A stretch of DNA of 64,000 bases from an uncultured Verrucomicrobiae bacterium (GTDB lineage: Bacteria > Verrucomicrobiota > Verrucomicrobiia > Chthoniobacterales > UBA10450). A program made the position numbers and the translations under genes. The notes below the pieces were generated by a model. That model searched no databases, was not told the DNA's origin, and saw nothing but the letters and a program-made list of their open reading frames with translations. The DNA lies in NCBI GenBank assembly GCA_963756875.1, contig CAVWPA010000003.1, positions 1,536,001 to 1,600,000 of the forward strand, in the 5' to 3' direction. This document shows positions 1 through 13,393 of the stretch, piece after piece; position 1 is the first letter of the stretch; each line of letters starts with the position of its first letter.

Positions 1-43
1 GCGAACTTTGCGGCGGGAGGCCGCGAGCGTTTGGCGAGTTGGT

Positions 44-1174
44 CTAGGGAAGCCGACAACTCGGTTCGGTGAAACCGAGGGAGGCCGGGGCCCCGGATGA
101 AATCCAGGCGAGAGCGCGCGTGGCGGCGGGATGGGAGGTTCGAGTCATGAAAAACTTGGCCGTACGCCGGCCAGCGGTTGGCTGCATCGCTTGGTTAGGC
201 TTTTCGTGATCCATGTTTTCAACCGCCGCGATTGCCGCTTGGACGGCAACTGGATCAAGTGTGAGTGAGATGTGGTCGATCCCCGGGAGCACCGTCACAG
301 GAACATCTTTGCCAGCTGTCTTGAAAACGGCTGCAAACCGATCGGCGTACGACACCTCATCGTTTTGACCGACGAGCACCCGAAGGGGTTGCCTAACCGC
401 TCGAATGTTTGCCTGGTAATCGCGCTCAGGCCTGAAGTTCTGCGCGAGGGCGAAGGAGTATTGCGGGGTGAGCAAGCCCTTATCCCTCTCGGCGACCGCG
501 AATCTGACCACTGGCAGGTCGTCAAACGCGTGCACCCGAAACCCGTTGAGCACGGCGGTCGCTATGATGCGCGGAACGCCCACGGTAGCCCAGCCGCCGT
601 TACCCGGACGCAACGTCGCTGCGTCCTGACTGATCCAAGGAGAAAGAAGAAGATAGTTGGAGAATAGTTCCTGACGTGGACTGCCCGCGAAGCGAAGCAC
701 AAATCCGCCGCCGGAAGAGAACCCGGCGAGCGTGGAAGGCTGAGCCAATTTAGTCGAATGGACGAAATCTTCCATGTCGTCCTCCAACTGGCCGATATAA
801 GCGATGTGGCCTTTTGTGCCTGATTCGCCGTGTCCGCGGACGTCCAAAGCGTAGGCTGCATAGCCAGCCGCAGCAAAACCCTTGGCCATCAGGTGCATGC
901 TGCTGCTAGTGGCAGAGGAGCCGTGCACGAGCACCACACTGCCTTTGACAGCGTCACCGGCATTCGGGTAGGCCCGAAAGGCGAGCTTGGCGCCATCGCG
1001 AGCCGTAAAGTAACTTAGCTCCGGTAAATCGGAGAAATCCACGTTCTTGAAAGGGTCACCAATGCTCGACATTGGCGGCGGCGCAGCGCCTGGCCCGCCA
1101 AGAGCGATTGCGAGCCCAAGGGCAGCCACAAGAACTGCGACAACAATAAGATTGGTGATGAGAAAACGCTTCAT
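44..1174 (-). CDS. Cassette: alpha/beta hydrolase with N-terminal signal/anchor; reads through its (truncated) attC
   Basis: VHGSS, DVRGHG, GFSSGG nucleophile motif, DHI catalytic His. ATG 8 nt after attC TAG. Confidence 0.85.
   Translation of the reverse strand: MKRFLITNLIVVAVLVAALGLAIALGGPGAAPPPMSSIGDPFKNVDFSDLPELSYFTARDGAKLAFRAYPNAGDAVKGSVVLVHGSSATSSSMHLMAKGFAAAGYAAYALDVRGHGESGTKGHIAYIGQLEDDMEDFVHSTKLAQPSTLAGFSSGGGFVLRFAGSPRQELFSNYLLLSPWISQDAATLRPGNGGWATVGVPRIIATAVLNGFRVHAFDDLPVVRFAVAERDKGLLTPQYSFALAQNFRPERDYQANIRAVRQPLRVLVGQNDEVSYADRFAAVFKTAGKDVPVTVLPGIDHISLTLDPVAVQAAIAAVENMDHEKPNQAMQPTAGRRTAKFFMTRTSHPAATRALAWISSGAPASLGFTEPSCRLP
107..200 (-). repeat. attC site, truncated (R'/L' arm missing)
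   Basis: Near-identical to attC 1667-1789 from gcgagagcgcgc to gttaggc; the rest is replaced by unrelated sequence. Confidence 0.85.
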
Positions 1175-1180
1175 GCGATG

Positions 1181-1304
1181 GCCTAACGAGACCAAGATCA
1201 GCTACGCCTTCCGACGGCGAGACTGATTTGGAATGAGGATAATCTAATCATAAGAAAATGTCGACGCGGTACGGGAAGGCGTTACCCGAATCGCCTGGTT
1301 AGAT
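1181..1304 (-). repeat. attC site
   Basis: gcctaac...gttagat, imperfect palindrome, 124 bp. Confidence 0.9.
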
Positions 1305-1309
1305 CCTCC

Positions 1310-1663
1310 TCAGTGCCGACCATGCAACGTGAACGTGATCGGAACCATCAGTGAATGTACTGCGTGGGGTTTTGCCTTCCAAAGTCTCAGAGCGGCTATG
1401 GCGTGTCCATCAAGGAGGGGCGAGCCTGTGCTCTTCACCACATGGATCTCACGCAAGTGACCAGAAGCATAATCAAACTTGAGCTCGAACAACGCGCTGC
1501 CTTCAACGTGGTGTCTGCGCATTTCGTACGGATAATCAGGGAGCGCAGCCCTAGTGAGTAGCTGCCGCTCTGCCTCATCCAAAGAAATCGTCGCTTTTTG
1601 GGAACCGGCAAAACTGGCGGCCCCAAGCGTGGCGAACATCAGAAGTAGAAGGCAAGCACGCAC
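1310..1663 (-). CDS. Cassette: secreted TonB C-terminal domain protein
   Basis: PDYPYEMRRHHVEG...VVKSTGSPLLDGHAIAALRLWKAKP...VPITF; GTG start 5 nt after attC TAG. Confidence 0.8.
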   Translation of the reverse strand: MRACLLLLMFATLGAASFAGSQKATISLDEAERQLLTRAALPDYPYEMRRHHVEGSALFELKFDYASGHLREIHVVKSTGSPLLDGHAIAALRLWKAKPHAVHSLMVPITFTLHGRH

Positions 1664-1666
1664 AAG

Positions 1667-1789
1667 ATCTAACGAGAACAAGATGAGCCACCACTGGCGA
1701 GAGCGCGCGTGGCAGCGGCATGTGGGGTTGGAATCACGAAAAACTTGGGCGTACGCCGGCCAGTGGTTGGCTCCATCGCCTGGTTAGAT
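1667..1789 (-). repeat. attC site
   Basis: atctaac...gttagat, 123 bp. Confidence 0.92.
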
Positions 1790-1798
1790 GCCGGCGTC

Positions 1799-2038
1799 CT
1801 ACGAAGCAAGTAGTGTCCGAACCGAGATGTCTTCATCCACGTCGTCCCAGTGAATGCCAACCCCGCGGCCAATCAACCGCCACTTCGCTCTTTGGTCGGG
1901 TGTGGCTCGCAGAAGCCGAGGGAACCACTCCAACGGAGCTGAGACGCGGCGGCCATCTGCGAGAGTGACGACCAACTCGTCGTCGGTGCACGACACATCG
2001 ACGGCATCGGCGACCGGCTTACTGGCTAAAGTGCTCAT
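1799..2038 (-). CDS. Cassette: DUF2442-family putative antitoxin
   Basis: LVVTLADGRRVSAPLEWFPRLLRAT...GIHWDDVDEDISV; overlaps the upstream DUF4160 gene by 20 nt. Confidence 0.85.
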   Translation of the reverse strand: MSTLASKPVADAVDVSCTDDELVVTLADGRRVSAPLEWFPRLLRATPDQRAKWRLIGRGVGIHWDDVDEDISVRTLLAS

Positions 2039-2255
2039 CCCAAGCAATGATAAACTTCTGAGCGTGCTCTGCAATAAGAGAGTGGATCTCGCGCAACTCG
2101 GAGCCGCGAAAGCCACGCGACTCCACCAGCTCGATCAGCTCCAGCCAAAACTTTGCGTATCGCTCGGCTTGCTCCACGTGGACGTGCCGGGGCTCCTGAC
2201 CTTCTCGACTGAAGAAAAAGAAGCGATAGCCGCCAATACGCAGAATCTCGGGCAT
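2019..2255 (-). CDS. Cassette: DUF4160-family putative toxin
   Basis: MPEILRIGGYRFFFFSREGQEPRHVHV...AKFWL...AWDEHF. Confidence 0.85.
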   Translation of the reverse strand: MPEILRIGGYRFFFFSREGQEPRHVHVEQAERYAKFWLELIELVESRGFRGSELREIHSLIAEHAQKFIIAWDEHFSQ

Positions 2256-2263
2256 CGCTGCCG

Positions 2264-2291
2264 AATCTACGGTGCCTTGCCGCCGCCGCAA
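2264..2291 (-). promoter_or_regulatory. Putative sigma70 promoter of the TA cassette (leaderless or short leader)
   Basis: TTGCGG-16 nt-TAGATT, 8 nt before ATG. Confidence 0.5.
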
Positions 2292-2313
2292 CACAACGCG
2301 CCTGGCTCATAGC

Positions 2314-2445
2314 ATCTAACGAGATAGTGCTGGGCCACCGCTGGCGGCGGCGGGCGTGGCGGACATCGAGAACTGCTTCATAAAATCAGGTGTGGACTTC
2401 ACAACGGCCCGCCTGAGGCGGGTTGGCTGCAGCGATTGGTTAGGC
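2314..2445 (-). repeat. attC site with small hairpin insertion (2408-2422)
   Basis: atctaac...gttaggc, 132 bp; extra cccgcctgaggcggg. Confidence 0.88.
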
Positions 2446-2555
2446 CTTTCGATCATCATCATGGGTTTTAGGATAGCGCGGAATAATCGTGACAACGCAC
2501 CGGTGTGCGCGGCAGAATCAATGCCCTGTTACGGTCTTGATGAAAACTCTACTCT

Positions 2556-3560
2556 ATGGAAAATCTTAATATCAATCTCCGACTCTGTGATTTTGCCGCG
2601 ATAGTGGCGACGATATTGATTTCGAGCAGTGCCCGCTCGGTCGCGCAAGCGAACGTGCAGAATGTCCAGGTGGTCAGTACTCCAGCCCCTTCAGGTTCAC
2701 CGCAGACGAATCTGCCGAATTTTTCAGCTCTTTCGACTCCTTCAGATACGCCGCCTCCCTCAACTTCCGGTTCCGGCCTATCTTCACTTATCGGGATTAC
2801 GCCTCAAAACTCCGGCTCGACGGCAACGTCGGCAAGTCCGGCAGCGCCGGCTTCACCCGCTGCTTCAGCTACTTCGTTTGTGCCCATCGACCCGGTCGAC
2901 TCGTTCCAAACGAAGTTTGCCCCCAACCAGAACGTCGGCGATGGTGTCGTCAACACTAACCCGGTCAAGCCCGCCCCTTCGCCTGCTATTTCGGCGAGCC
3001 CGGCGACGACTAATATCCCTATTCAAGGATCCCAGGTGAACGAGGCCGCCCACGCCACGGGAACAGGGACGGGAACGGTAATGCCCAGTAACAACGTGCT
3101 AATTCAGGGATCCCAGGCGAACGATAACGCCCACGCCGCGAGCTCAGGATCAGTGCCGATAACGCCCAGCAAAAATGTCTCTATTCAGGGAGCTCAGGTA
3201 AACAATCCGCTTACAGGCAACGCAGACAACAACGCGGGCGATGCAGATAACCGCCGCGTCAATCGACATCCTGGACACAAAATTAAGAACAAAGGCCAGG
3301 GACAACTGAGCAACGCAGGAGCCGGCGGCGACGACAGTGGACCCAAACTACACGACGGTCAGCACAAGAAGCGGGAACGAATCCAGACCCAGGGACAAGG
3401 AGGCAATGGGCAGCGCCATCATCACCAACAGCAGGTGCAATCCACTCAACCGCAGCCGGGCCTCAGGGCTTGGGGCACCACAGTCCATGCGGGCAACGTA
3501 GACAGCGCGGGCGATGGTGGTAAAAAAGGGAAACCAAAACCTACCCCAACCCCCCACTAG
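2556..3560 (+). CDS. Cassette gene in inverted orientation: secreted low-complexity S/P/T/Q-rich protein
   Basis: 334-aa ORF with signal-peptide-like N-terminus, three IQG[S/A]Q.N repeats and PTPTP tail; lies between two attC sites. Confidence 0.7.
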   Translation: MENLNINLRLCDFAAIVATILISSSARSVAQANVQNVQVVSTPAPSGSPQTNLPNFSALSTPSDTPPPSTSGSGLSSLIGITPQNSGSTATSASPAAPASPAASATSFVPIDPVDSFQTKFAPNQNVGDGVVNTNPVKPAPSPAISASPATTNIPIQGSQVNEAAHATGTGTGTVMPSNNVLIQGSQANDNAHAASSGSVPITPSKNVSIQGAQVNNPLTGNADNNAGDADNRRVNRHPGHKIKNKGQGQLSNAGAGGDDSGPKLHDGQHKKRERIQTQGQGGNGQRHHHQQQVQSTQPQPGLRAWGTTVHAGNVDSAGDGGKKGKPKPTPTPH

Positions 3561-3631
3561 AAGGTTTCGTGTGGATCACGAAACTTGTCACCGGAGGCAT
3601 CCTCGCTCTGCGTCGACGGCGCCGGCTTCCC

Positions 3632-3982
3632 GCCTAACGAGAACAAGATGAGCGACGGCTTCCGTTGTTACAACAATACGGAGGGAGTGCGTGAGCGCAG
3701 CGAATGGAGCTGCGGGTCAAGCGACATGGAAGGTAAAACGACGAGGGTAGGAGCGAGTGAGTGTGGGCAACGAACGAGTTTCAATCGCACTAGGGAAGCC
3801 GGGGTCTTGGATAAAATCCAAGCGAGGGCGCGCGTCGATCGGAGTGAATGGAGTGGACTGTCAAGCCACGACATAGACGGGAAGCCCGGAGGGGAGGGAG
3901 AGCGCGACGAACCAAAATGTGGAAGTCATCTCAAAAGTGGAGCGCACAGCGGTCCGCCGTTCGCTCCATCGCATGGTTAGGT
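3632..3982 (-). repeat. attC site interrupted by ~228-bp insertion
   Basis: gcctaacgagaacaagatgagcgac ... cgttcgctccatcgcatggttaggt; 351 bp versus ~123 bp. Confidence 0.85.
3657..3886. mobile_element. Putative MITE / non-autonomous IS inserted in attC
   Basis: Imperfect terminal inverted repeats ggcttccgt / acgggaagcc; duplicated internal motif gaatggag...gtcaagc; no transposase. Confidence 0.55.
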
Positions 3983-3994
3983 GCTTGGTGATAA

Positions 3995-4570
3995 TCATAG
4001 ACTTCGCTCCTTCAGGAGTCTGATTAACGTTAATGCAATATCAACGTATTGCGTAGCCGACTCCTCACTCATTTCAAAATCCTGTTTATGGGTAGCTGCG
4101 TTACGGATTCGGCTAAGAGAATTAAACAACTCTTCCTCGTGTCGCCCAAAAACCTCCTTGTCCCGGAGCATCTTGGCGATGGAGGTGTGGGCTAAGAGCT
4201 CTTCTTTCGTGTCAAGCTCCGGATAGTGTTTGATAAGGGCTTCAGCGGCCGGCCAGCTCAAGCATCGAATACGCGCCAAGAACGGCAGACCTTTGATCAA
4301 AGCAGGCGATCTCTCCAAGCTCGGTTCGCGGAATTCGATCAACCGACGTTGGTCTTTTGAGAGTGATGACGGGGCGGGAAGAGCAGCGACGTCATGTTTC
4401 AAATCCTCAATCTGCTTTGCGAAATCGATTATTGTATCCCGATGCTGCAACCTTGTTAGCCGAGGGAATACAGCGGCGATCCCTCGGCGGAATAGGAGTC
4501 CAATTACAATAACTGTGGCAGGCCAGCTTGTCGCCTTTATCAGTTCGGCTGTAAACGTGAGAGCGTCCAT
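3995..4570 (-). CDS. Cassette: hypothetical protein with N-terminal TM helix
   Basis: ORF fills the cassette; ATG 6 nt after attC TAG; IRNAATH motif near C-terminus. Confidence 0.7.
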   Translation of the reverse strand: MDALTFTAELIKATSWPATVIVIGLLFRRGIAAVFPRLTRLQHRDTIIDFAKQIEDLKHDVAALPAPSSLSKDQRRLIEFREPSLERSPALIKGLPFLARIRCLSWPAAEALIKHYPELDTKEELLAHTSIAKMLRDKEVFGRHEEELFNSLSRIRNAATHKQDFEMSEESATQYVDIALTLIRLLKERSL

Positions 4571-4574
4571 AGGG

Positions 4575-4699
4575 GCCTAACGAAAACAAGATCAGCGACG
4601 GCTTTCGAGAGCGCGGCTGACCTGAAATGATGATACACTAGTCATGTTTGAAATGTGAGCGCGACGCGGGAAGCCGTTCGCTGCATCGTTTGGTTAGGC
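4575..4699 (-). repeat. attC site
   Basis: gcctaac...gttaggc, 125 bp. Confidence 0.9.
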
Positions 4700-5374
4700 G
4701 TAATCGTTGCTCCTGCCATGGTGTATGAAATCGGAACCTTAAAATGTCGATCGTACGAACCCGGTTTAAACTGCCAGCGACGAAATGCGGACATAATAGC
4801 GTTGTCCAGGATGGGCGAGCCGAGTATTCTGCGCCATCGAAACGTCCGTGACTCTGCCTGAGGAGGGCTCTATAGTGAATAAAGCTACGCCGGCTCCAGT
4901 GATGTGTCGCGCACGTGCTCCGTAAGGATACTCTGGTCTAGGAGCTGACATCGCAATTGGGCGCGTAATAAGCGGGGTCGAGGTGGGCGTCGGCATCGCT
5001 GCCAGAGCAGCGGCTTGCTGTTGCTCTCGCTCGGCTGCTGCAGCTTTAGACGCTGCATCGAAGTGAGTAGCGTCATATAGAATGGTGCCGTCGGTGCGTT
5101 GCAATCCTTCAGGAACAAATCTGAAGTATATAGCCTGCGGGGAGCCTAGAACTGTAGCTACGACACGAAGTGAATCTCCATCTCGGGAATACTTGCAAAC
5201 GTAGTTGGGGTCGCCGCTGCTGGGAGTGAAGTCTAGCTCGTCCGATGAAATGATCTTCACGGCCGGGCCGCCGTTGACGGCGCGAAACATCGCGCCTCGC
5301 AGATCAGTGGAATCAGTGCTCGCGCGCAGTGCGAGGGCTGCGGCAAAGACGAGCAATAACGATGCGCGCTGCAT
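4642..5374 (-). CDS. Cassette: secreted protein with TonB C-terminal domain (apparent frameshift ~4820)
   Basis: PRPEYPYGARARHITG...; shifted frame continues SPILDNAIMSAFRRWQFKPG...VPISY and ends at a TGA inside attC. Confidence 0.7.
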
Positions 5375-5377
5375 TAG

Positions 5378-5500
5378 GCCTACGAGAATAAGCTCAGCTA
5401 CGCCTTCCGAGAGCGCGGCTGAACTGGAATCAAGGATACACTAATCATAACAAAATGTGAACGCGATACGGGAAGCGTTAGCTGCATTGTCCCGTTAGGC
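5378..5500 (-). repeat. attC site (R' reads GTAGGC, one T missing)
   Basis: gcctac...gttaggc; otherwise similar to attC 4575-4699. Confidence 0.8.
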
Positions 5501-6231
5501 CTCATGGTTGCTGGACTGCTAGCTCCACAACCTGCTTGGGAAGCGTGCCTAGGAAGAAGACCCGACTGAAACGTGTTGTGTGGTCCTTCCTGCCGAGTCT
5601 CGCTCGGTATCTCACACCAAGAGGACAGACCAAAACCCTCGGAAGCGATCAATAACCACACGGCCTCGCAACGCTGCCGATATCCATCGAGATATATTTC
5701 CTTCGTAGCGATTGCATTCCGAATGTGATCGGGTTGGCCAAACGGAAACCATCCGGCGCGAGGCACCCGCCAATCGCTCTCCGTATAGTCGATTAACCGG
5801 TCGATGCGCACGTGGTGGACGGAAGAAGCCAACGGCTCAGGTAGCAACGAACAATCGAGGTCACACCAAGCTCCGAGCGGCGGGATGTTCTGAGCGACCA
5901 CAGAGGAAAGAGCCTCGGATATAGGTCTGCGGCCAGACCGGGGAAGTGGCTCGCGGGTGATCCAGTGGACACTAACGCCAACCGTTGGATTGCCAGTTGC
6001 TTGATACTGATCACGCGCCATGTCAACGATTCGCTGTTCTTCGCTTTCGCGTCGCTTCTCGGGTTCGCGTATGTGTCGGGTAATCTCGATTCCGATGCGG
6101 CTGCCGCAAAAGTCCGCCAATATGTCAGGTGCGGGTGGTTCAGGTTGTTCGATACGCGTGAGAGTAAGTTCAGGCGATAGCCGCCTCAACTCATCGAATA
6201 GCTGAAGCTCGAATTGTTGCTTTGGAGTCAC
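5398..6231 (-). CDS. Cassette: hypothetical protein, possibly PD-(D/E)xK-like; C-terminus probably frameshifted
   Basis: PAPDILADF...IGIEIT motif; GTG start 13 nt after attC TAG. Confidence 0.6.
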   Translation of the reverse strand: MTPKQQFELQLFDELRRLSPELTLTRIEQPEPPAPDILADFCGSRIGIEITRHIREPEKRRESEEQRIVDMARDQYQATGNPTVGVSVHWITREPLPRSGRRPISEALSSVVAQNIPPLGAWCDLDCSLLPEPLASSVHHVRIDRLIDYTESDWRVPRAGWFPFGQPDHIRNAIATKEIYLDGYRQRCEAVWLLIASEGFGLSSWCEIPSETRQEGPHNTFQSGLLPRHASQAGCGASSPATMRPNGTMQLTLPVSRSHFVMISVSLIPVQPRSRKA

Positions 6232-6242
6232 GCGTGAATAAG

Positions 6243-6365
6243 GCCTAACGAGAACAAGCTGAGCGACCGCCGCCGAGAGCGAGCGTGGCTTCGACTGAAA
6301 CTGTTTTAATCATCTGAAATGTGGACGCGCAACGGGTGGTGGTTAGCTCCACTGACTGGTTAGGT
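6243..6365 (-). repeat. attC site
   Basis: gcctaac...gttaggt, 123 bp. Confidence 0.92.
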
Positions 6366-6366
6366 C

Positions 6367-6669
6367 TCATCGGGCAATGGATACTTCGCCCCAGTTAATC
6401 GGAATCACCGTATTCTGTGTGCTATTGACCCCGATGTACATTCCGTTTTTCGACTCGACCAAGTCGTGGCCCACGACTTGGGACAAGTTGACGTCGACGG
6501 TATTATCAACATCGACGTTGCCCCGGACTTCCACTGCAGCCCCGATGTCTGTAACAACCACTTTCTGCTGCTCGTGCGGCGGGATAACGCCAGCGTTCTG
6601 GAGTGCGATAACTGCGACACCGATGGAGATCAAATACAAGGGGAGTGTGATTCGCGTGAATTCTTTCAT
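6367..6669 (-). CDS. Cassette gene 2 of 2: small membrane-anchored protein
   Basis: N-terminal hydrophobic helix; ATGA overlap with the upstream gene. Confidence 0.7.
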   Translation of the reverse strand: MKEFTRITLPLYLISIGVAVIALQNAGVIPPHEQQKVVVTDIGAAVEVRGNVDVDNTVDVNLSQVVGHDLVESKNGMYIGVNSTQNTVIPINWGEVSIAR

Positions 6670-7031
6670 AGTAAGACCTTAATTATGACTGCGGAGAAAC
6701 TGAGAAGAATGACTAATAAAAAGAAGAGCGAACCACTAAACTCCGCCACGACGTATGGGAAGGAACCCCATGCCTTCTTAAATTCTTTTACTGTATATTT
6801 CGCTCTCTCACGCGCCGAGGCAGTTTTCGCGTCAGGCTCGTTTGCCGGCTGACGACCAGCATGCGCAGCCCATCGGGTGAGCACAATGTTGATAGCAACG
6901 AACGACACGGCGGCCGACGACAACACGGCCGCAACACCGCAGAGCTTGTCCAACGCGACGACGTTAAAACCGACCGCGGCAGCCGTAAACCAGAACTGCT
7001 CGTCGCGGTAGTTTGTAGAGGCTTCACTCAT
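6666..7031 (-). CDS. Cassette gene 1 of 2: small membrane protein
   Basis: About three hydrophobic segments; first ORF of the cassette. Confidence 0.7.
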   Translation of the reverse strand: MSEASTNYRDEQFWFTAAAVGFNVVALDKLCGVAAVLSSAAVSFVAINIVLTRWAAHAGRQPANEPDAKTASARERAKYTVKEFKKAWGSFPYVVAEFSGSLFFLLVILLSFSAVIIKVLL

Positions 7032-7044
7032 GCGCGCGCGGGAG

Positions 7045-7167
7045 ACCTAACGAGAACAAGATGAGCCACCACTGGCGAGAGCGCGCGTGGCAGCGGGAGA
7101 TGAGGTTGGAGTCATGGAAAACTTGGGCGTACGCCGGCCAGTGGTTGGCTCCATCGCCTGGTTAGGT
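7045..7167 (-). repeat. attC site
   Basis: acctaac...gttaggt, 123 bp; near-identical to 1667-1789 and 9889-10011. Confidence 0.92.
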
Positions 7168-7659
7168 CTTTGGGTCGCTTTCTTCGAGAGGCTTTGTATC
7201 CACGTTCAGCCTATTTGTGCTCTGTAAAACGCGAAGCCACTCGGTCTGGCACTGCCAGTTCAGATGCTGTTGATCGGCGTGGGCCTGCGGCGAGTAGAAC
7301 TTATCAATGTCCGTCTGCTCAAGCCGCTTGTAACCAAGCGCCCGCGCCATCGCAGACAGCATCAAAAGATATGTATGCTCCCGCTGCTGGAAATTCTGGT
7401 TGGCCGGTGGATTCACCAGCGCGGCGTAATACTCGTGCCACAACTGAACAACTTGAGCGTTCTCGGCAAAAACAACATCGATCACATTCAGAGCGTTCAC
7501 CCACTCGAACGCTGGGGGGAACGAACGCCTGTGGACCATCAGCGTCAGAAACAAGCGCTCTTTAGCATCCCGTCGCGCCTTACGAGCCTGCCACCAAAGC
7601 GTGATGATGACAGCGAACAATGGCCCGACGACGATCGCGATAATATTGACGGCCTGCAT
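7162..7659 (-). CDS. Cassette: DUF6680-like protein
   Basis: GPLFAVIITLWWQ...LFLTLM..R...VNALNVIDVVF...LSAMARALGY...DIDKFYSP pattern (recognised from memory). Confidence 0.65.
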   Translation of the reverse strand: MQAVNIIAIVVGPLFAVIITLWWQARKARRDAKERLFLTLMVHRRSFPPAFEWVNALNVIDVVFAENAQVVQLWHEYYAALVNPPANQNFQQREHTYLLMLSAMARALGYKRLEQTDIDKFYSPQAHADQQHLNWQCQTEWLRVLQSTNRLNVDTKPLEESDPKT

Positions 7660-7662
7660 GAG

Positions 7663-7810
7663 ACCTAACGAGAACAAGCTGAGCTACGGCTACCGGAACC
7701 GAGCGTCAAATGCGATCTGAATGTTTTAATCACGACAAAATGTAAATGCACAACGGGTAGCCAGCCTGCTCGCGAAAGCCTTCGGAGTTAGCTCGAGCGC
7801 CTGGTTAGGT
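7663..7810 (-). repeat. attC site with 24-bp insertion (7763-7786)
   Basis: acctaac...gttaggt, 148 bp. Confidence 0.9.
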
Positions 7811-7826
7811 CTCCGGCACAATAAAA

Positions 7827-8174
7827 TCAAATCGGTATGCCCTCCAGTGAGATGGAAACGAAAATCATCGCGAGCAAGAGAGTGGTCAAAAGCCCGGCGA
7901 GTATCCAGCGGCGATTTTGAAAGAGCAAAATATCTCCGGCCCATTTAAGGGAGTTGAGGGCAACCAAAGCACATAGGCCGAGATGCTCGACAGAACGGCT
8001 TGTCCAGCCGAGGCGAACCATAAGTGGCTGAAAGATGCGGTCGTGAAGCGGGACGTAAAACAGCGCATAGAGAGGAATTCGCTCGCAAACACGGTAGATG
8101 CCGTATGCCAAACCGCTAGCGACTAGCTCAGCAACTATCCCAAGGAGGATGGCCTGAACCAGACGAGCGCGCAT
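7827..8174 (-). CDS. Cassette: small membrane protein
   Basis: Hydrophobic 115-aa ORF filling the cassette. Confidence 0.65.
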   Translation of the reverse strand: MRARLVQAILLGIVAELVASGLAYGIYRVCERIPLYALFYVPLHDRIFQPLMVRLGWTSRSVEHLGLCALVALNSLKWAGDILLFQNRRWILAGLLTTLLLAMIFVSISLEGIPI

Positions 8175-8186
8175 AAGATAAGAAAG

Positions 8187-8310
8187 ACCTAACGAGACGG
8201 AGCTCAGCCGCCGCTGGCGGGAGCGAGCTTTGCTTCGGAGTTTAACGTTGAAGTCATTTCAAAGGTAGGTATCGGAACGGCCAGCGGTTGGCTGCAGCGA
8301 TTGGTTAGAC
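8187..8310 (-). repeat. attC site
   Basis: acctaac...gttagac, 124 bp. Confidence 0.9.
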
Positions 8311-8317
8311 GACGTCA

Positions 8318-8806
8318 TTAGTAGTGCTCCCTCGGAGTGACCGTAACGCTCAACTTGCCGGAATCGATAGCAGCGATGATTCCGGCGGGAGTTTCTGCTG
8401 TTTTGAGGCCATGCACCCTAGATCTTACGACGACCTTATCCTGATAACGCAAAAAGTCGGCCTTGAGCGTCGCATACAGCGGAGATTTTGTGAAAGAGAG
8501 GCCAAGTAAGGCATACGCCTTCGCTTCTGCAGTCCCGTTGAAATAGGTTTGCCGGAGATAAGTCTCACGGTTTTTGTCCCCGAGCATTCTCTCGAAACAC
8601 ATTTGATTCATGTAGCCGACGGTTTCACCGGCGGCTCTATCCTGTTTGGTCAAGAGTGGGTCAGCCTCGCGCTCAGCAGCGGTGGAGAGATCAAAGGAAT
8701 CGACGACGCGCAACATAGCGTCGGTGCACGGGTCCTCGGGTGAATCGATGGCGAACGCACCGACAGCAAGGCTCACGGCAGCAAGCGTGAGAAAGGTTTG
8801 TTTCAT
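8318..8806 (-). CDS. Cassette: secreted hypothetical protein
   Basis: Signal peptide MKQTFLTLAAVSLAVGAFA. Confidence 0.7.
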   Translation of the reverse strand: MKQTFLTLAAVSLAVGAFAIDSPEDPCTDAMLRVVDSFDLSTAAEREADPLLTKQDRAAGETVGYMNQMCFERMLGDKNRETYLRQTYFNGTAEAKAYALLGLSFTKSPLYATLKADFLRYQDKVVVRSRVHGLKTAETPAGIIAAIDSGKLSVTVTPREHY

Positions 8807-8823
8807 AGCGCGCGAGGCTAGTC

Positions 8824-8946
8824 GTCTAACGAGACGGAAGTGACCTACCGCCACCGAGGGCGAGCGTCGGTCGAAGTGGAAGCGGATTAGTCATGGAAAG
8901 CGTGAGCGCACGGCGGGTGGCGGTTAGGTCCACTGATTGGTTAGAT
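8824..8946 (-). repeat. attC site
   Basis: gtctaac...gttagat, 123 bp. Confidence 0.9.
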
Positions 8947-8961
8947 GGTTTGTGGCAATCC

Positions 8962-9370
8962 TCATCGACGTGCAACGACGAATGTCACTGGAAACGAGAC
9001 GGTGCCTGAAATAGCACGACCGTGCCGCCGACCCGGCTTCCACTGACACTGGTGAACCGCCGATGTGACAATCTTCTCCAACTCAGAAGGCAAATGCGGT
9101 GCGAAAGCAAGTGATCGAACGCGACCCGCAGCATCCACGGTGACCGATACAGGACCTCTTGCCTTCGATGTGCCTGCGACGGAGGTCCACTGGATAGTCG
9201 AGGCCTTTTGCGAGACCTGGCTCGCCACCAACAGGCAGCGGCGGGGAATCGAGCTGCTTCTTGTCCCAAGTAAACTTGTTTTCGTACTGGTAGCTCACGC
9301 CGGGAGCAGTCGCCGCTGCCGACATCGCGACTGCAACCAACGCACCGACCGTCAAAACAAAAGGCTTCAT
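8962..9370 (-). CDS. Cassette: secreted TonB C-terminal domain protein (apparent frameshift ~9155)
   Basis: LDYPVDLRRRHIEG in one frame; VSVTVDAAGRV...WKPGRRHGRAI...FPVTF in the next. Confidence 0.7.
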
Positions 9371-9382
9371 AACGCGCTTACC

Positions 9383-9506
9383 ATCTAACGAGAACAAGAT
9401 CAGGTACGGCTACCGACACCGAGCTCTGATCGAAGTGAGTGTATTCTGGTCATCTTAAAACGTAAACACGCGCCGGGTAGCCGTTACCTGCATCGCCTGG
9501 TTAGAT
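9383..9506 (-). repeat. attC site
   Basis: atctaac...gttagat, 124 bp. Confidence 0.9.
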
Positions 9507-9510
9507 GCGA

Positions 9511-9885
9511 TCATCGTAATACACCTGGGTGCCGCTGTGCTAAGGCGTCGTAAAATGTGAAAGGCTGGCTGCGCTCCCAATCGGGTGAAACGGAATCGAG
9601 ATGCCCCAGCACGTCGGCAATCTGCGCGTCGCTTACGGTGCCGTAGTCGTCCTCGCGCATCTCGATGCTGGATCGCCATGTGTCTATCCGAAGATTCAGG
9701 TCGTCGCTCTCGGACTGACGCTCGTCCAGCGCATCGCGATAAGCGCGGTATTCCGCTTCGCGTGCGGGATCATCGATCCTATCGAGTAGCTGCGATGCTT
9801 CTGTCTTCGTGAGTTTGGGTGAGAATGAAACCCCAAAGAACTCTAGCTTCACTTTTTGGCGCTCAGTGGCTGGCTCGTCGCGCAT
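9511..9885 (-). CDS. Cassette: hypothetical protein (PATERQ..L..FG....LTK.EAS.L.D motif)
   Basis: ORF fills the cassette; ATG 5 nt after attC TAG. Confidence 0.7.
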   Translation of the reverse strand: MRDEPATERQKVKLEFFGVSFSPKLTKTEASQLLDRIDDPAREAEYRAYRDALDERQSESDDLNLRIDTWRSSIEMREDDYGTVSDAQIADVLGHLDSVSPDWERSQPFTFYDALAQRHPGVLR

Positions 9886-9888
9886 AGC

Positions 9889-10011
9889 ATCTAACGAGAA
9901 CAAGATGAGCCACCACTGGCGAGAGCGCGCGTGGCAGCGGGATGTGAGGTTCGAGTCATGGAAAACTTGGGCGTACGCCGGCCAGTGGTTGGCTCCATCG
10001 CCTGGTTAGGT
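9889..10011 (-). repeat. attC site
   Basis: atctaac...gttaggt, 123 bp. Confidence 0.92.
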
Positions 10012-10728
10012 CATTTGATCTCAATCTGAATGGGACTAGGAATGTAGTTTCCGCTTAGTGTAACTTTACTGTCTCCAGAAAGTGTGAGCTCGACCACTGG
10101 CTGGCCCGCACCGATCAGAGAGTAAATGAGTCGAGCCGACAAACCATCTTCTGCGATTTGTTTGGAATCCTTGCCGGACTCAAACGCACTGGAATTTGGC
10201 TCTGAGGATGGCCAGAAATCTAGGATCTTGGCAGGCTGTGCTAGGGAAAAACCCGAGACTTCGGCCACAAACACGATTGCGCCAAGAGGAACGTTTTTCG
10301 ATGAATTGAAGCGCAATGTCGCTACCTTTGTGCGCGTCCTTGTCGCTCACTTTGCATGATGCGAGCGAAAGGACAGGCGGGCTGGCTTGAACAGAGGTTT
10401 CTTTAAGGGATTTTTCGAGAGTTTGAATCTTGGCTGTCTTCTCGGCGTCGAGGCGCTGGAGCAGCTCAACTTGAGAAGCGAGTTTGGCTAATGCTTCACT
10501 TGCGGGGCCTGTATATCGCTCCAAAGCGATTGTCTTGAACGGTGCAAGCTGCGTCTCGAGTCTTCGAATTTCAGCGTTCTTCTCGCCAATTGTCCGCTCC
10601 AGTCCGCGATTTTCGTCATTTAACTTCGGCACCTGCAAAGCGAGGGGGACGAGACCAGCTATGATCACAGCGGCTGCTGCAACAAGCGCCGCCTGGACAG
10701 TAGCCTTCTTATACCATTTCGTTGCCAT
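10011..10728 (-). CDS. Cassette: membrane-anchored coiled-coil protein (apparent frameshift ~10330)
   Basis: Two overlapping ORFs (10180-10728, 10011-10316) that together fill one cassette. Confidence 0.6.
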
Positions 10729-10735
10729 GGCGCAG

Positions 10736-10846
10736 ATCTAACGAAAAAAGCTGAGCCACGGGCGACTGGCGGCGTGGGCACGTCTGAAAATGCTGTCGGA
10801 CAACTGCCCGCGCCAACGCCCGTTGGCTCCGGGCGACTGGTTAGGC
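10736..10846 (-). repeat. attC site, divergent type (111 bp)
   Basis: atctaac...gttaggc with gagccacgggcg / cgcccgttggctc arms. Confidence 0.85.
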
Positions 10847-11046
10847 CACAGCAACGTCCCAACTGCAAATAAATCATGGCGAATCAAAGCGCTCATAAAA
10901 TCTGACGGCTCCGCACTTGCTCGTCGCGTAAGCCTGCGCGAGCTGAACCCAAACTGAAATCTGAAATCTGACACATCTCAATTCTGTGAACGGACTGTCG
11001 CACCGGAACGAAACCGACTCAAACAAAATCCCAAAGACACGAAGTG

Positions 11047-11166
11047 GCCTAACGAGAACAAGATGAGCCACGCCGCCGAGAACGGAGTTGGCTGCAAGCT
11101 GAGGATTGAACTGCAAGAAAGCTCATAATCAAGTTGGGCGGCGTTGGCTCCATCGCATTGTTAGAC
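11047..11166 (-). repeat. attC site
   Basis: gcctaac...gttagac, 120 bp. Confidence 0.9.
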
Positions 11167-11607
11167 CTATTTGGACTTCGGCGTCTGCTCAACTTTATAT
11201 CCAGGCACCGTCCTGTCCGGCCCAATGATAATCTTGCTACCATCGGGCAACTCGTCCGGGTCGGATGGCAAATGCAGTTTCCAAGTGATGAACTCGACGC
11301 TCGGCGTTTTGGGATCCTTCGCACCCGGAATGGGAACGAGAACGCCGTACAAGCGGAGTCTCATATGTTTTTCAGCGGCCTTCATATACGCGGGTCCAAG
11401 AAAATTAACCGTCTGCTTTGTAGCGCCGAGCAGAACGACATTCCCGCCCGTGTTGCCCTGCACGGTTTTGTCGGCCCGAAACATCAGTTGTCCGTCCTGC
11501 ATGATCGGGTCGCCCGTGATCCATATTGCATACTTTGCTGGATCATCGGCTGCGAACACGGCGATGCTGCGGGCGACAAGCAACAAGACAACCAGGAAAC
11601 AGCGCAT
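11167..11607 (-). CDS. Cassette: secreted hypothetical protein
   Basis: Signal peptide; ORF fills the cassette exactly. Confidence 0.75.
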   Translation of the reverse strand: MRCFLVVLLLVARSIAVFAADDPAKYAIWITGDPIMQDGQLMFRADKTVQGNTGGNVVLLGATKQTVNFLGPAYMKAAEKHMRLRLYGVLVPIPGAKDPKTPSVEFITWKLHLPSDPDELPDGSKIIIGPDRTVPGYKVEQTPKSK

Positions 11608-11609
11608 GG

Positions 11610-11732
11610 GTCTAACGAGAATAAGCTGAGCGGATCGCTGCCTGAACCGAGGCTGAAATGCGGAATGAGTGTTTAGTCATGGAAAATGTAAGCGCACAAC
11701 GGGCAGCGATTGGCTCAAGCGCCTGGTTAGAT
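11610..11732 (-). repeat. attC site
   Basis: gtctaac...gttagat, 123 bp. Confidence 0.92.
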
Positions 11733-11870
11733 CCAAACCGTGCCATGTCGCGGTAGCGGTTTTGGTGTCCATCACCACGACGGAAGGCATAACCGCAAAG
11801 ATGTCCACTCGCTCTTTCACCGCGTGTGATCTCGCTGACAGAACTCATAAAATCGCTCGCAGCCGTTTGG

Positions 11871-11993
11871 ATCTAACGAGAACAAGCTGAGCGCATCGCT
11901 GTCGAAACCGAGGCCGAAATGCGCGATGAATTTCTAGTCATGAAAAATGTAAGCGCACAACGGGCAGCGATTCGCTCCAGCGCCTGGTTAGGT
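11871..11993 (-). repeat. attC site
   Basis: atctaac...gttaggt, 123 bp; closely similar to 11610-11732. Confidence 0.92.
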
Positions 11994-12335
11994 CTATAGG
12001 TAGCCACCACACTGGAACTCTGTCGAGCCCAGCTTGCATGAGCAACTGACCTGTCCGCCCTGAGGCCAAGTCGGACTGTACGTGAAACTGAGGAAGCCAT
12101 GCTTGGTATCGTAGTGGAACTTGGGTTCTGATGGCAGCGCAGCGAGATATAAAGGCACCAACTGCTGAAGCGAAGTCGGAAATCGCCGATGATCGTGATC
12201 GTAGCGCTGGATAGCGACGGCGACCGCTGACGCCCTAGCCTTCAATCGGACGCCCGCTGGGTCTTCGCCCGCCTGCCACGGAAAGCACGCACCAAGCAGA
12301 AGTGTGACAACCGTCAGCCCAATCACGCGTCTCAT
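11994..12335 (-). CDS. First cassette: small lipoprotein
   Basis: LLLGAC lipobox; FPTSLQQLVP.YL..LP motif; ATG 4 nt after attI TAG. Confidence 0.75.
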   Translation of the reverse strand: MRRVIGLTVVTLLLGACFPWQAGEDPAGVRLKARASAVAVAIQRYDHDHRRFPTSLQQLVPLYLAALPSEPKFHYDTKHGFLSFTYSPTWPQGGQVSCSCKLGSTEFQCGGYL

Positions 12336-12337
12336 AG

Positions 12338-12367
12338 ACCTAACGAGAATTAGACGAATTTTTTCGC
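12338..12367 (-). other. Putative attI site
   Basis: Top strand gcgaaaaaattcGTCTAATtctcGTTAGGT: R box plus inverted L-like box, no attC palindrome, directly after the intI stop. Confidence 0.7.
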
Positions 12368-13393
12368 CTAATTCTGGATTTGGCGGTTATCCGATCCCAT
12401 CGTTCGCGGGTCATCAAGAGGGCTCTGGATCGCGAGCCCGGGTTTGTTCAGGACATGGGTATAAATCATCGTGGTCGAGACGTCCTTGTGGCCGAGCAAC
12501 TCCTGGACGTTACGAATATCGGAGCCGTATTCAAGCAAATGCGTGGCAAAAGAGTGTCGAAAGGTGTGGCAACTTGCTGCCTTGGGTATCACGCGTCCGT
12601 TGGACGGCCAATTTAACAGCATTTTGGAGGTTCTTTTCAAGACGAATGGTGTCGGCGGAGCTCGCCGGAGAGCGGGTCGATGGAAAGTTTGTTGGCCGGG
12701 AAAACATACTGCCATGGCCACGCGCGGCTGGCGTTGCGATATTTGCGTTCCAAGGCAAAGGGGAGATAGACGCGGCCGCCGCCGCCGGCGAGATCCCGCT
12801 CGTGCAACGCCTGTACATGGGCCAGATGTAACTCGGAGCCGGCGTCGCAGACGTTGCGGCAAGAGCGTTCTGCGTTGACGCAATCCTTTGCCGTCGCGCA
12901 CCGTGATTTGACCGTATCCGAAATCGACGTCTTTGACGCGCAGGCGCACGCATTCCATCAAACGCAGGCCGGCGCCATAAAGCAGTTCGGCCATCAGCTG
13001 ATGCTCGCCGTTCATTTTTTTAAGGACCGAGCGCGTTTCGGCAGGGGTAAAGACGACGGGTAGCTTGGGCGGGCGCGTGACGCGCTGGATGTCATCGATG
13101 AAACTCAGCTTGCGATCGAGCACGTGGTGGTAAAGAAAAAGCAGCGCGCTGAACGCCTGATTCTGTGTGGAGGCGGCGACGCGTTTATTGACGGCGAGAT
13201 GGCTAAGAAACTGCGATATCTCTGCCTCGCCCATTTCGTTCGGGTGACGTTTGCCCTGGAACAGAATGTAACGCCGGATCCAATCGACGTACGCTTCTTC
13301 GGTGCGAATGCTGTAATGTTTAACCCGTAGCTGCCATCGGACGCGGTCCAGCAATTTTGGGGAGGACGCAACGGTGGCGGTCGTGGGCTTCAC
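12368..13393 (-). CDS. intI: Integron integrase (three compensating internal frameshifts)
   Basis: [52 protein letters not shown]. IntI-specific WPWQYVFP...[11 protein letters not shown] patch is in an alternative frame. Confidence 0.93.

Follow-up and report, generated by a model that had tools for sequence, protein, structure and literature searches.

A putative Shine-Dalgarno-less translation relay in the attC hairpins of a sedentary chromosomal integron

In class 1 integrons the attI1 site contains a short open reading frame (ORF), ORF-11 (and likewise ORF-17/ORF-18; Hanau-Bercot et al. 2002, cited in PMC8876359). According to the passages of PMC8876359 that treat it, ORF-11 stops at a TAG that occupies positions 3-5 of the core GTTRRRY, a core that is supplied by the downstream cassette, its peptide is unimportant, and it is thought to pass ribosomes on to a downstream cassette that lacks an initiation region of its own. 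For the attC recombination sites of class 1 integrons, the same passages mention the proposal that a short ORF within attC relieves the block imposed by the mRNA stem-loop, by means of termination and reinitiation (Jacquier et al. 2009, cited in PMC8876359). Here we analyse a stretch of 64,000 nucleotides (nt) from an uncultured Verrucomicrobiae bacterium (C3:1536001-1600000, hereafter the window; the source genome comprises 2.69 Mb in 3 contigs, at 56.8% GC), of which positions 1-12350 hold the proximal part of an integron cassette array, and we describe a conserved start codon in the centre of its attC sites, together with the short frame that follows it (the mini-ORF) and that may relay ribosomes to the next cassette.

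The mini-ORF resembles ORF-11 in being a short ORF that spans a recombination site, in having the TAG of GTTRRRY as its stop and, as far as ORF-11 is described in the passages cited above, in the indifference of its peptide sequence. ORF-11, on the other hand, is described there as located in attI, where it serves the first cassette only, and as preceded by a canonical Shine-Dalgarno (SD) sequence (GGAG, 8 nt upstream), whereas the mini-ORF is located in attC, would move along with every cassette and has a putative start in the hairpin loop without an SD; moreover, it is conserved over an attC family that is found in at least 25 genera, with a putative role as a relay. With the attC ORF of class 1 integrons it shares the proposed mechanism, in which translation opens the hairpin and the next cassette is then translated, but that work, as summarized in PMC8876359, dealt with single attC sites from mobile class 1 integrons in E. 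coli. In architecture the sites are akin to the long, species-specific attC families of sedentary chromosomal integrons (e.g. the Vibrio cholerae repeats), which have a long variable terminal structure and with which they share a length of ~120 nt, the R''/L''/L'/R' boxes, extrahelical bases, a long unpaired centre and high similarity within a lineage; no translational role is given to the centre of those sites in the passages of PMC5027507 that describe them.

In the literature searched, an attC ORF that evolution has maintained throughout a family is not reported, nor is stop avoidance in one, the only pertinent statement being at the level of a review. Mechanistic data are, to our knowledge, limited to a few class 1 sites in E. 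coli. The relay principle has already been proposed for class 1 integrons, whereas its conserved, SD-less and attC-borne form in a chromosomal integron family appears to be new. The matter bears on the expression of Pc-distal cassettes in large chromosomal integrons, where each of them lies behind a stable hairpin. If true, the translational relay would be an evolved and portable part of the cassette and no accident of single sites, it would operate without SD pairing, and the sequence of attC would have been moulded by translation besides recombination. It also offers a simple rule, connecting the ORF status of an attC to the leader length of the next cassette, that can be checked in any integron data set.

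The attC sites and the frame in their centre

The array belongs to a sedentary chromosomal integron, and its repeats are true attC recombination sites. The top strand of attC and the cassette ORFs both lie on the minus strand, the array extends past the start of the window to C3 1526005 (~30 sites over C3 1526005-1547993), and the adjacent gene encodes an integrase that scores 330 bits against TIGR02249 (cutoff 265). Apart from the site at 5380, whose R' is degenerate, all 16 uninterrupted window sites have core boxes of the form RYCTAAC...GTTAGRY. RNAalifold predicts a consensus fold of 24 pairs for them, with compensatory changes on both sides in 14; the R and L boxes are separated by an unpaired spacer, and the 5' arm of the top strand has two bulges of a single base each. 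Although this fold leaves the central ~56 nt unpaired, they hold conserved blocks, namely CCGyyGTGCGyTyACrTTTnnRTGAYT and GCTCGCTCTCG. The sites belong to a ~120-nt attC family that is common to one bacterial family.

As the initial annotation had pointed out, 15 of the 16 uninterrupted sites between 1181 and 11993 carry ATGA or GTGA in their centre on the cassette (minus) strand, GTGA being found in the sites with R' at 1669 and 7665. The spacing from this start to the TAG of R' was also confirmed (69 nt in 13 sites, but 66 nt at 2316 and 78 nt at 11049), and so were the five sites that end 5-6 codons early, through a TGA in the L' box at 1183, 4577, 8189 and 9385 and a TAG at 5380. The three peptides that had been quoted as examples could be reproduced exactly. 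The 16 sites are as follows, in window positions:

1183..1251, minus strand: attC mini-ORF, ATGA at 1251..1248, early TGA in the L' box; attC ~1181-1304
1669..1737, minus strand: attC mini-ORF, GTG start, 69 nt to the R' TAG; attC ~1667-1789
2316..2381, minus strand: attC mini-ORF of the 66-nt subfamily, TTTTATGAAGC; attC ~2314-2445
4577..4645, minus strand: attC mini-ORF, 69 nt, early TGA in the L' box; attC ~4575-4699
5380..5448, minus strand: attC mini-ORF with degenerate R', CTCGTAGG, early stop; attC ~5378-5509
6245..6313, minus strand: attC mini-ORF, MIKTVSVEATLALGGGRSACSR and stop; attC ~6243-6365
7047..7115, minus strand: attC mini-ORF, 69 nt; attC ~7045-7167
7665..7733, minus strand: attC mini-ORF, GTG, 69 nt; 144-nt attC with an extra insert in the left arm, ~7663-7810
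8189..8257, minus strand: attC mini-ORF, early TGA in the L' box; attC ~8187-8310
8826..8894, minus strand: attC mini-ORF, MTNPLPLRPTLALGGGRSLPSR and stop; attC ~8824-8946
9385..9453, minus strand: attC mini-ORF, early TGA in the L' box; attC ~9383-9506
9891..9959, minus strand: attC mini-ORF, 69 nt; attC ~9889-10011
10738..10844, minus strand: short attC of 107 nt without a central ATGA, the single exception among the 16
11049..11126, minus strand: attC mini-ORF, 78 nt; attC ~11047-11166
11612..11680, minus strand: attC mini-ORF, MTKHSFRISASVQAAIRSAYSR and stop; attC ~11610-11732
11873..11941, minus strand: attC mini-ORF, 69 nt; attC ~11871-11993

Two details of the initial annotation came out somewhat differently by reading of the sites. 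The next cassette starts 4-24 nt after the TAG and not 4-19 nt (24 nt applies to the start after 11873, and that after 11049 is ambiguous), still with no SD-like sequence visible; and the hexamer that precedes the central start, first given as YAnnnT at 4-6 nt, is read here as yAnnTT (TACATT, CACATT, CAAGTT, TACGTT, TACCTT, GACATT) at 3-6 nt in most sites. Outside the window the same array contains 7 more uninterrupted attC sites, in 6 of which ATGA, ATGG or GTGA lies in frame at a distance of 69 or 66 nt, the seventh being a short attC without an in-frame start.

Conservation of the start and of the open frame

A covariance model (R1) was built from the 16 window sites and run on 61 genomes, giving ~900 matches in 50 of the 61 (the source genome counted) and in 34 of the 36 genomes of the same family, each of which represents another genus; this tally takes in three genomes flagged as unpublished (G002, G007 and G014), and the sequence analyses include no unpublished genome. 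For the latter, a profile of the window sites was applied to 573 kb of arrays from 26 other genomes, which resulted in 359 matches, 310 at full length and 304 with a GTTRR R' (GTTAG in 296/304). Some members fall into nearly identical subfamilies (e.g. ...CCAACCACTGGCCGGCGTACGCCCAAGTTTTCCATGACT...), in which the window sites 7045-7167, 1667-1789 and 9889-10011 join sites in L034, L039, L040 and L048, and such a recurrence across genera suggests either exchange of cassettes or very strong conservation.

The central start is conserved among the relatives, the homologous triplet being ATG in 196 and GTG in 25 of the 294 sites that have a residue there. Column by column, the first four positions of the motif RTGAYT are occupied by A in 215, G in 40, T in 29 and C in 10 sites, by T in 269, by G in 240, and by A in 249 and G in 36. 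In 223 of the 304 sites (73%), found in 25 of the 26 genomes, the nearest ATG/GTG shares the frame of the R' codon; it is off frame in 33 and absent in 48, so that lengths which break the frame do occur among the relatives (33/256 sites with a start). The distance from start to R' is 69 nt in 183 sites, 66 nt in 22, 70 nt in 14, 72 nt in 6 and 71 nt in 5, with a tail beyond these. As to the ends of the 223 in-frame ORFs, 142 are at the R' stop, 79 at a TGA that lies 15 nt earlier, one is premature and one runs off; the frame ends, in the manner of ORF-11, at the T-R-R of GTTRRRY with the next start nearby. The left half of the sites is free of a multiple-of-three constraint, with distances of 49 nt (105 sites) and 50 nt (58 sites) from the TAA of R'' to the ATG. 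An upstream ATG in the L'' box was considered as the true start and rejected as inconsistent, since it is in frame only in the class with a 49-nt left arm (105/177).

The conserved block exceeds the start codon and comprises yAnnTTT..RTGAYT as well as GCTCGCTCTCG, which is what one would expect if the conserved centre were a feature of recombination at the DNA level (i.e. a determinant of folding or strand selection in the variable terminal structure, an AT-rich apex that helps the hairpin to extrude, or the site of a host factor), with the open frame as a by-product of ancestry, hairpin geometry and a purine-poor top strand. The passages of PMC5027507 on the unpaired parts of attC, which are reported there to influence recombination and to be purine-skewed between the strands, point in the same direction, as do the 27% of sites in which the in-frame start is missing and the occurrence of near-identical subfamilies across genera, by which the sites are far from independent. 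A role in recombination gives no reason, however, for a periodicity of three or for a frame that begins at ATG.

For 182 unique 69-nt sites, stops were counted over the mutational paths that reach one in a single step. In the stretch +6..+41 that follows the ATG, 0 stops over 488 paths were found in frame 0, compared to 17 over 627 in frame 1 and 9 over 204 in frame 2, whereas upstream of the ATG (-42..-1) the three frames have 27 over 642, 39 over 807 and 52 over 683, respectively; the frames of the bottom strand contain 119, 24 and 101 stops. Within the 69-nt class no stop is seen in frame 0 before position 48, and the variable part does contain stops in frames 1 and 2. The third codon, for instance, appears as TCA, AAA, AGA, ACA, CCA, CGA or CAA and never as TAA or TGA. 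Stop avoidance was also checked against dinucleotide-preserving shuffles of the variable 36 nt, where 177 of 177 unique sites are stop-free in frame 0, and 159 and 152 in frames 1 and 2, with 160.6 expected for each. When the set was thinned to ~34 representatives (more than 12 of 42 positions different), the approximate probability that all would be open was 6e-4 by the shuffles and 0.002 by the path method; with stricter thinning (more than 16 differences, ~17 representatives) power was lost and P rose to 0.11. These tests replaced a column-independent expectation (34 stops in frame 0, none observed) that proved too crude, as subfamily structure alone makes sites deviate from it (35 expected and 56 observed at position 5 of frame 2).

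The comparison supports the view that stops are kept out of frame 0 alone, and there only past the ATG. A purely DNA-level origin does not account for stops that are missing in just this frame and on just this side of the ATG, the other five frames and the shuffles being normal, and translation of the mini-ORF would be the simplest account of an absence of stops that is both frame-specific and anchored at the start.

A conserved start with an open frame would also suit a mini-ORF that encodes a functional peptide of 22 residues. This is very improbable: the first 13 codons are hypervariable without an excess of variation at third positions, the C-terminal residues are set by the stem and the L'/R' boxes, and one third of the ORFs lose their last 5 codons to the TGA. 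Codon periodicity of the variability was looked for across the sites and none was found, from which it follows that the peptide itself is not conserved.

Next-cassette starts and the proposed relay

The start of the next cassette, taken as the first start of an ORF of at least 60 codons (n=268), lies at a median of 5.5 nt past the TAG, with 51 of the 268 at 0 nt, 48 at 4 nt and 25 at 5 nt; half are at 0-5 nt. At 0 nt stop and start are directly joined, as GTTAGATG (51/268 cassettes). Starts within 5 nt of R' occur behind 111 of 194 attC sites with an in-frame ORF and behind 23 of 74 others, i.e. the association between ORF and leader has an odds ratio of 2.97 (Fisher, p = 2e-4), or of 2.45 when stratified by genome (Mantel-Haenszel, chi-square 8.06). 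The preference of the R'-abutting cassettes for ORF-bearing attC is not predicted by a centre that serves recombination only, and neither are the longer 5' leaders in sister families that lack the motif. In four genomes from other families of the same order, with different attC types (G040, G055, G051 and G041), the sites lack a conserved central start, an ATG/GTG that stays open to the last 31 nt is found in 0-38% of the sites per frame without preference for any frame, and the cassettes start at a median of 21, 19, 15 and 16 nt past R', respectively, with none at 5 nt or less. In a third family (G038), by reading, the centre does have an ATGA, followed by a frame of 17-18 codons whose stop, TAG or TGA, is in the right stem. 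The R' cores of this family (L154-L157) are variable, with GTTCG, GTTAC and GTTGT besides GTTAG.

The ORF of the upstream cassette (n=244) ends before R'' in 107 cases and at the TAA of R'' in 80; another 16 end within the left arm, 15 read through that arm and stop exactly at the TGA of the central ATGA, and no ORF was found in the other 26. In the arrays of the relatives (L031-L069) the TAA of the R'' core thereby forms the stop codon of one third of the upstream cassette ORFs (80/244). According to RNA folds predicted for 90 sites, pairing probability is lowest around the AUG, from -11 to +20 (0.17-0.5, compared to 0.85-0.99 for the stems).

The cassettes lack SD sequences, as had been noted, with SD-like 4-mers before 3 of the 268 next starts, but this is not special to cassettes, since SD sequences are scarce throughout the genome: SD 4-mers precede 12.2% of 2017 long ORFs against a background of 9.7%, without a purine peak. 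The mini-ORF itself does not have an SD of the ORF-11 type ~8 nt before its ATG, where yAnnTTTnn(n) is found and no GGAG. A search of the genome for the 3'-end motif of 16S, to obtain the anti-SD, gave one match, which is not rRNA-like. Genome-wide, the starts of long ORFs are only mildly enriched in AT at -14..-5 and favour A at +4.

The initial annotation had also raised the possibility that each attC holds a promoter of its own, with yAnnnT as -10 and a leaderless mRNA that begins at the central ATG, by which distal cassettes would be expressed independently of Pc. Some observations are in line with this, namely the conserved A and TTT located 3-6 nt ahead of the ATG, the sigma-70-like score of three window attC sites (TTCACA/CTCACA/TCGACA-17/18-TATCCT/TATCAT) and the transcription start sites within attC in Vibrio cassettes that are mentioned, as possibly spurious in the judgment of the authors, in the passages of PMC11014356. 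The first base of the hexamer, however, is C in 212 of the 304 sites and T in 53, there is neither an extended -10 nor a -35 (that no consistent -35 is present had been stated at the outset), and in the three sigma-70-like sites the -10 would come to lie downstream of the ATG. The spacing between hexamer and ATG varies from 3 to 6 nt, which is below the usual distance from a -10 to the start. A sigma-70 scan of 13.5 kb returned 10 sites, with 6.3 +/- 2.5 expected, and none of them at the proposed hexamer. We therefore consider a promoter in attC improbable, and with the promoter unsupported the idea of expression independent of Pc is left without a basis. The other half of the original proposal, a leader mini-ORF followed by reinitiation, gained comparative support from the open frame, the stop/start geometry and the association between ORF and leader.

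We infer that the attC mini-ORF is translated and relays ribosomes to the next cassette, a reading to which we assign, from sequence comparison, a probability of roughly 0.55. On the strand in mRNA sense, the ATG or GTG of RTGAYT in the unpaired centre of the hairpin opens a frame of ~22 codons in most members of the family, and this frame passes along the 3' arm of the hairpin until it meets the TAG of GTTAG, the R' core, or the TGA 15 nt before it. Ribosomes would load at the AUG within the open, AU-rich loop without the help of an SD, as they must on most genes of this SD-poor genome, or would alternatively re-initiate there after the ORF of the previous cassette, which would have ended at most 50 nt upstream or at the overlapping ATGA. 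While translating they would melt the 3' arm of the attC stem, then terminate at R' and re-initiate on the start of the next cassette 0-20 nt further on; at 0-5 nt after R', initiation de novo would otherwise be blocked by the stem. The sequence of the peptide would be immaterial, and the mini-ORF would represent the attC-borne counterpart of the attI1 ORF-11. The relay fits the position of the stop at R' (or 15 nt before it), a next start at 0-5 nt that sits at the foot of a 25-bp stem, the indifferent peptide and the link between ORF and leader. In its full generality the proposal reads that every cassette carries, in its own hairpin, a portable and SD-less translation relay made up of a loop AUG, an arbitrary frame of ~22 codons and an R' stop that abuts the next start (GTTAGATG), that any cassette order made by recombination would as a consequence stay translatable, that the cassette starts have co-evolved to 0-5 nt, and that selection acts on attC both as a DNA structure and as a coding sequence, across dozens of genera; for this we would lay even odds.

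Several observations weigh against a translated relay. The in-frame start is lacking in 27% of the sites, with 33 of the 256 start-bearing ones off frame (14 at 70 nt, 5 at 71 nt, and others) and 48 of the 304 without any ATG/GTG. As to the lengths of indels, a rough hand count gives ~20 in-frame versus ~24 off-frame independent length variants, an excess over the 1:2 of chance that is weak and that we do not count as support. The upstream TTT, the A at +4 (249/304) and the following YT are as conserved as the ATG, and the start codon alone is therefore insufficient as an explanation. The top strand is pyrimidine-rich (43% C), so that stops are scarce in all frames and only ~16 of the 177 sites would be expected to have one; the signal of stop avoidance consists of the absence of a modest number of stops, and with sites that share ancestry, in subfamilies that recur between genera, all P values are approximate. 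No SD or other recognizable signal for the loading of ribosomes was seen ahead of the AUG. A look for sequencing runs over window 2001-12000, RNA included, returned none. The absence of codon periodicity fits a situation in which only the act of translation matters and fits equally a sequence that is not coding, as a role in recombination would have it. Finally, the integrase gene next to the array is frameshifted, which implies that the array may be decaying. A DNA-level role of the centre is, in sum, a serious rival, or may coexist with the relay; as the sole explanation we regard it as rather unlikely, at a clear distance above both the promoter and the functional peptide.

Integrase, interrupted attC sites and cassette contents

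The head of the array and the two attC sites with an insertion comprise the following features:

12368..13393, minus strand: integron integrase gene at the head of the array, co-oriented with the cassettes (the 'inverted' arrangement)
12330..12350, minus strand: attI-like junction, TTCTCGTTAGGTCT; 4 nt past its TAG the first cassette begins with ATG
3634..3980, minus strand: interrupted attC; central block and right stem are separated by an insert of ~165-230 nt
1..216, minus strand: left part of an interrupted attC, whose R' end lies beyond the window at C3 1535912

The integrase has Pfam matches to Phage_int_SAM_4 and Phage_integrase, and its nearest relatives are found in metagenome-assembled genomes titled Chthoniobacterales and Candidatus Udaeobacter (63-51% identity), which points to a verrucomicrobial host. 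The middle ~85 codons can not be aligned in the main frame to an intact relative, the expected residues being present in other frames, and the ORF remains open by chance across these ~85 out-of-frame codons. Judged by its reading frames, the gene would be either a pseudogene or affected by assembly errors, and it was dropped as a functional partner, being frameshifted here.

A common insert of ~165-230 nt occupies the identical position, between the conserved central block and the right stem, in four attC sites (window 3634-3980; window 1-216 plus C3 1535912-1536000; C3 near 1533577-1533668; C3 near 1531508-1531654). It has the pattern TGGATTTyATCC...GTGCGATTGAAAC...CCGTATTGTTGTAAC, without a match in Rfam at the gathering threshold, and may be a small mobile element that targets attC. 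An Rfam scan of the window at the same threshold recovered one tRNA only, with no match within the array.

The function of the cassettes is mostly unassignable, the recognizable ones being an alpha/beta hydrolase, TonB_C, DUF2442 and DUF6680. The cassette at 1799-2310 (minus strand) holds two overlapping small ORFs, for a DUF2442 protein and for 91 amino acids without a Pfam match, and may be a two-gene module. In the cassette at 2556-3560 an ORF of 334 amino acids, of low complexity and without a Pfam match, runs on the opposite (plus) strand and contains an 81-nt tandem duplication at 3021-3182.

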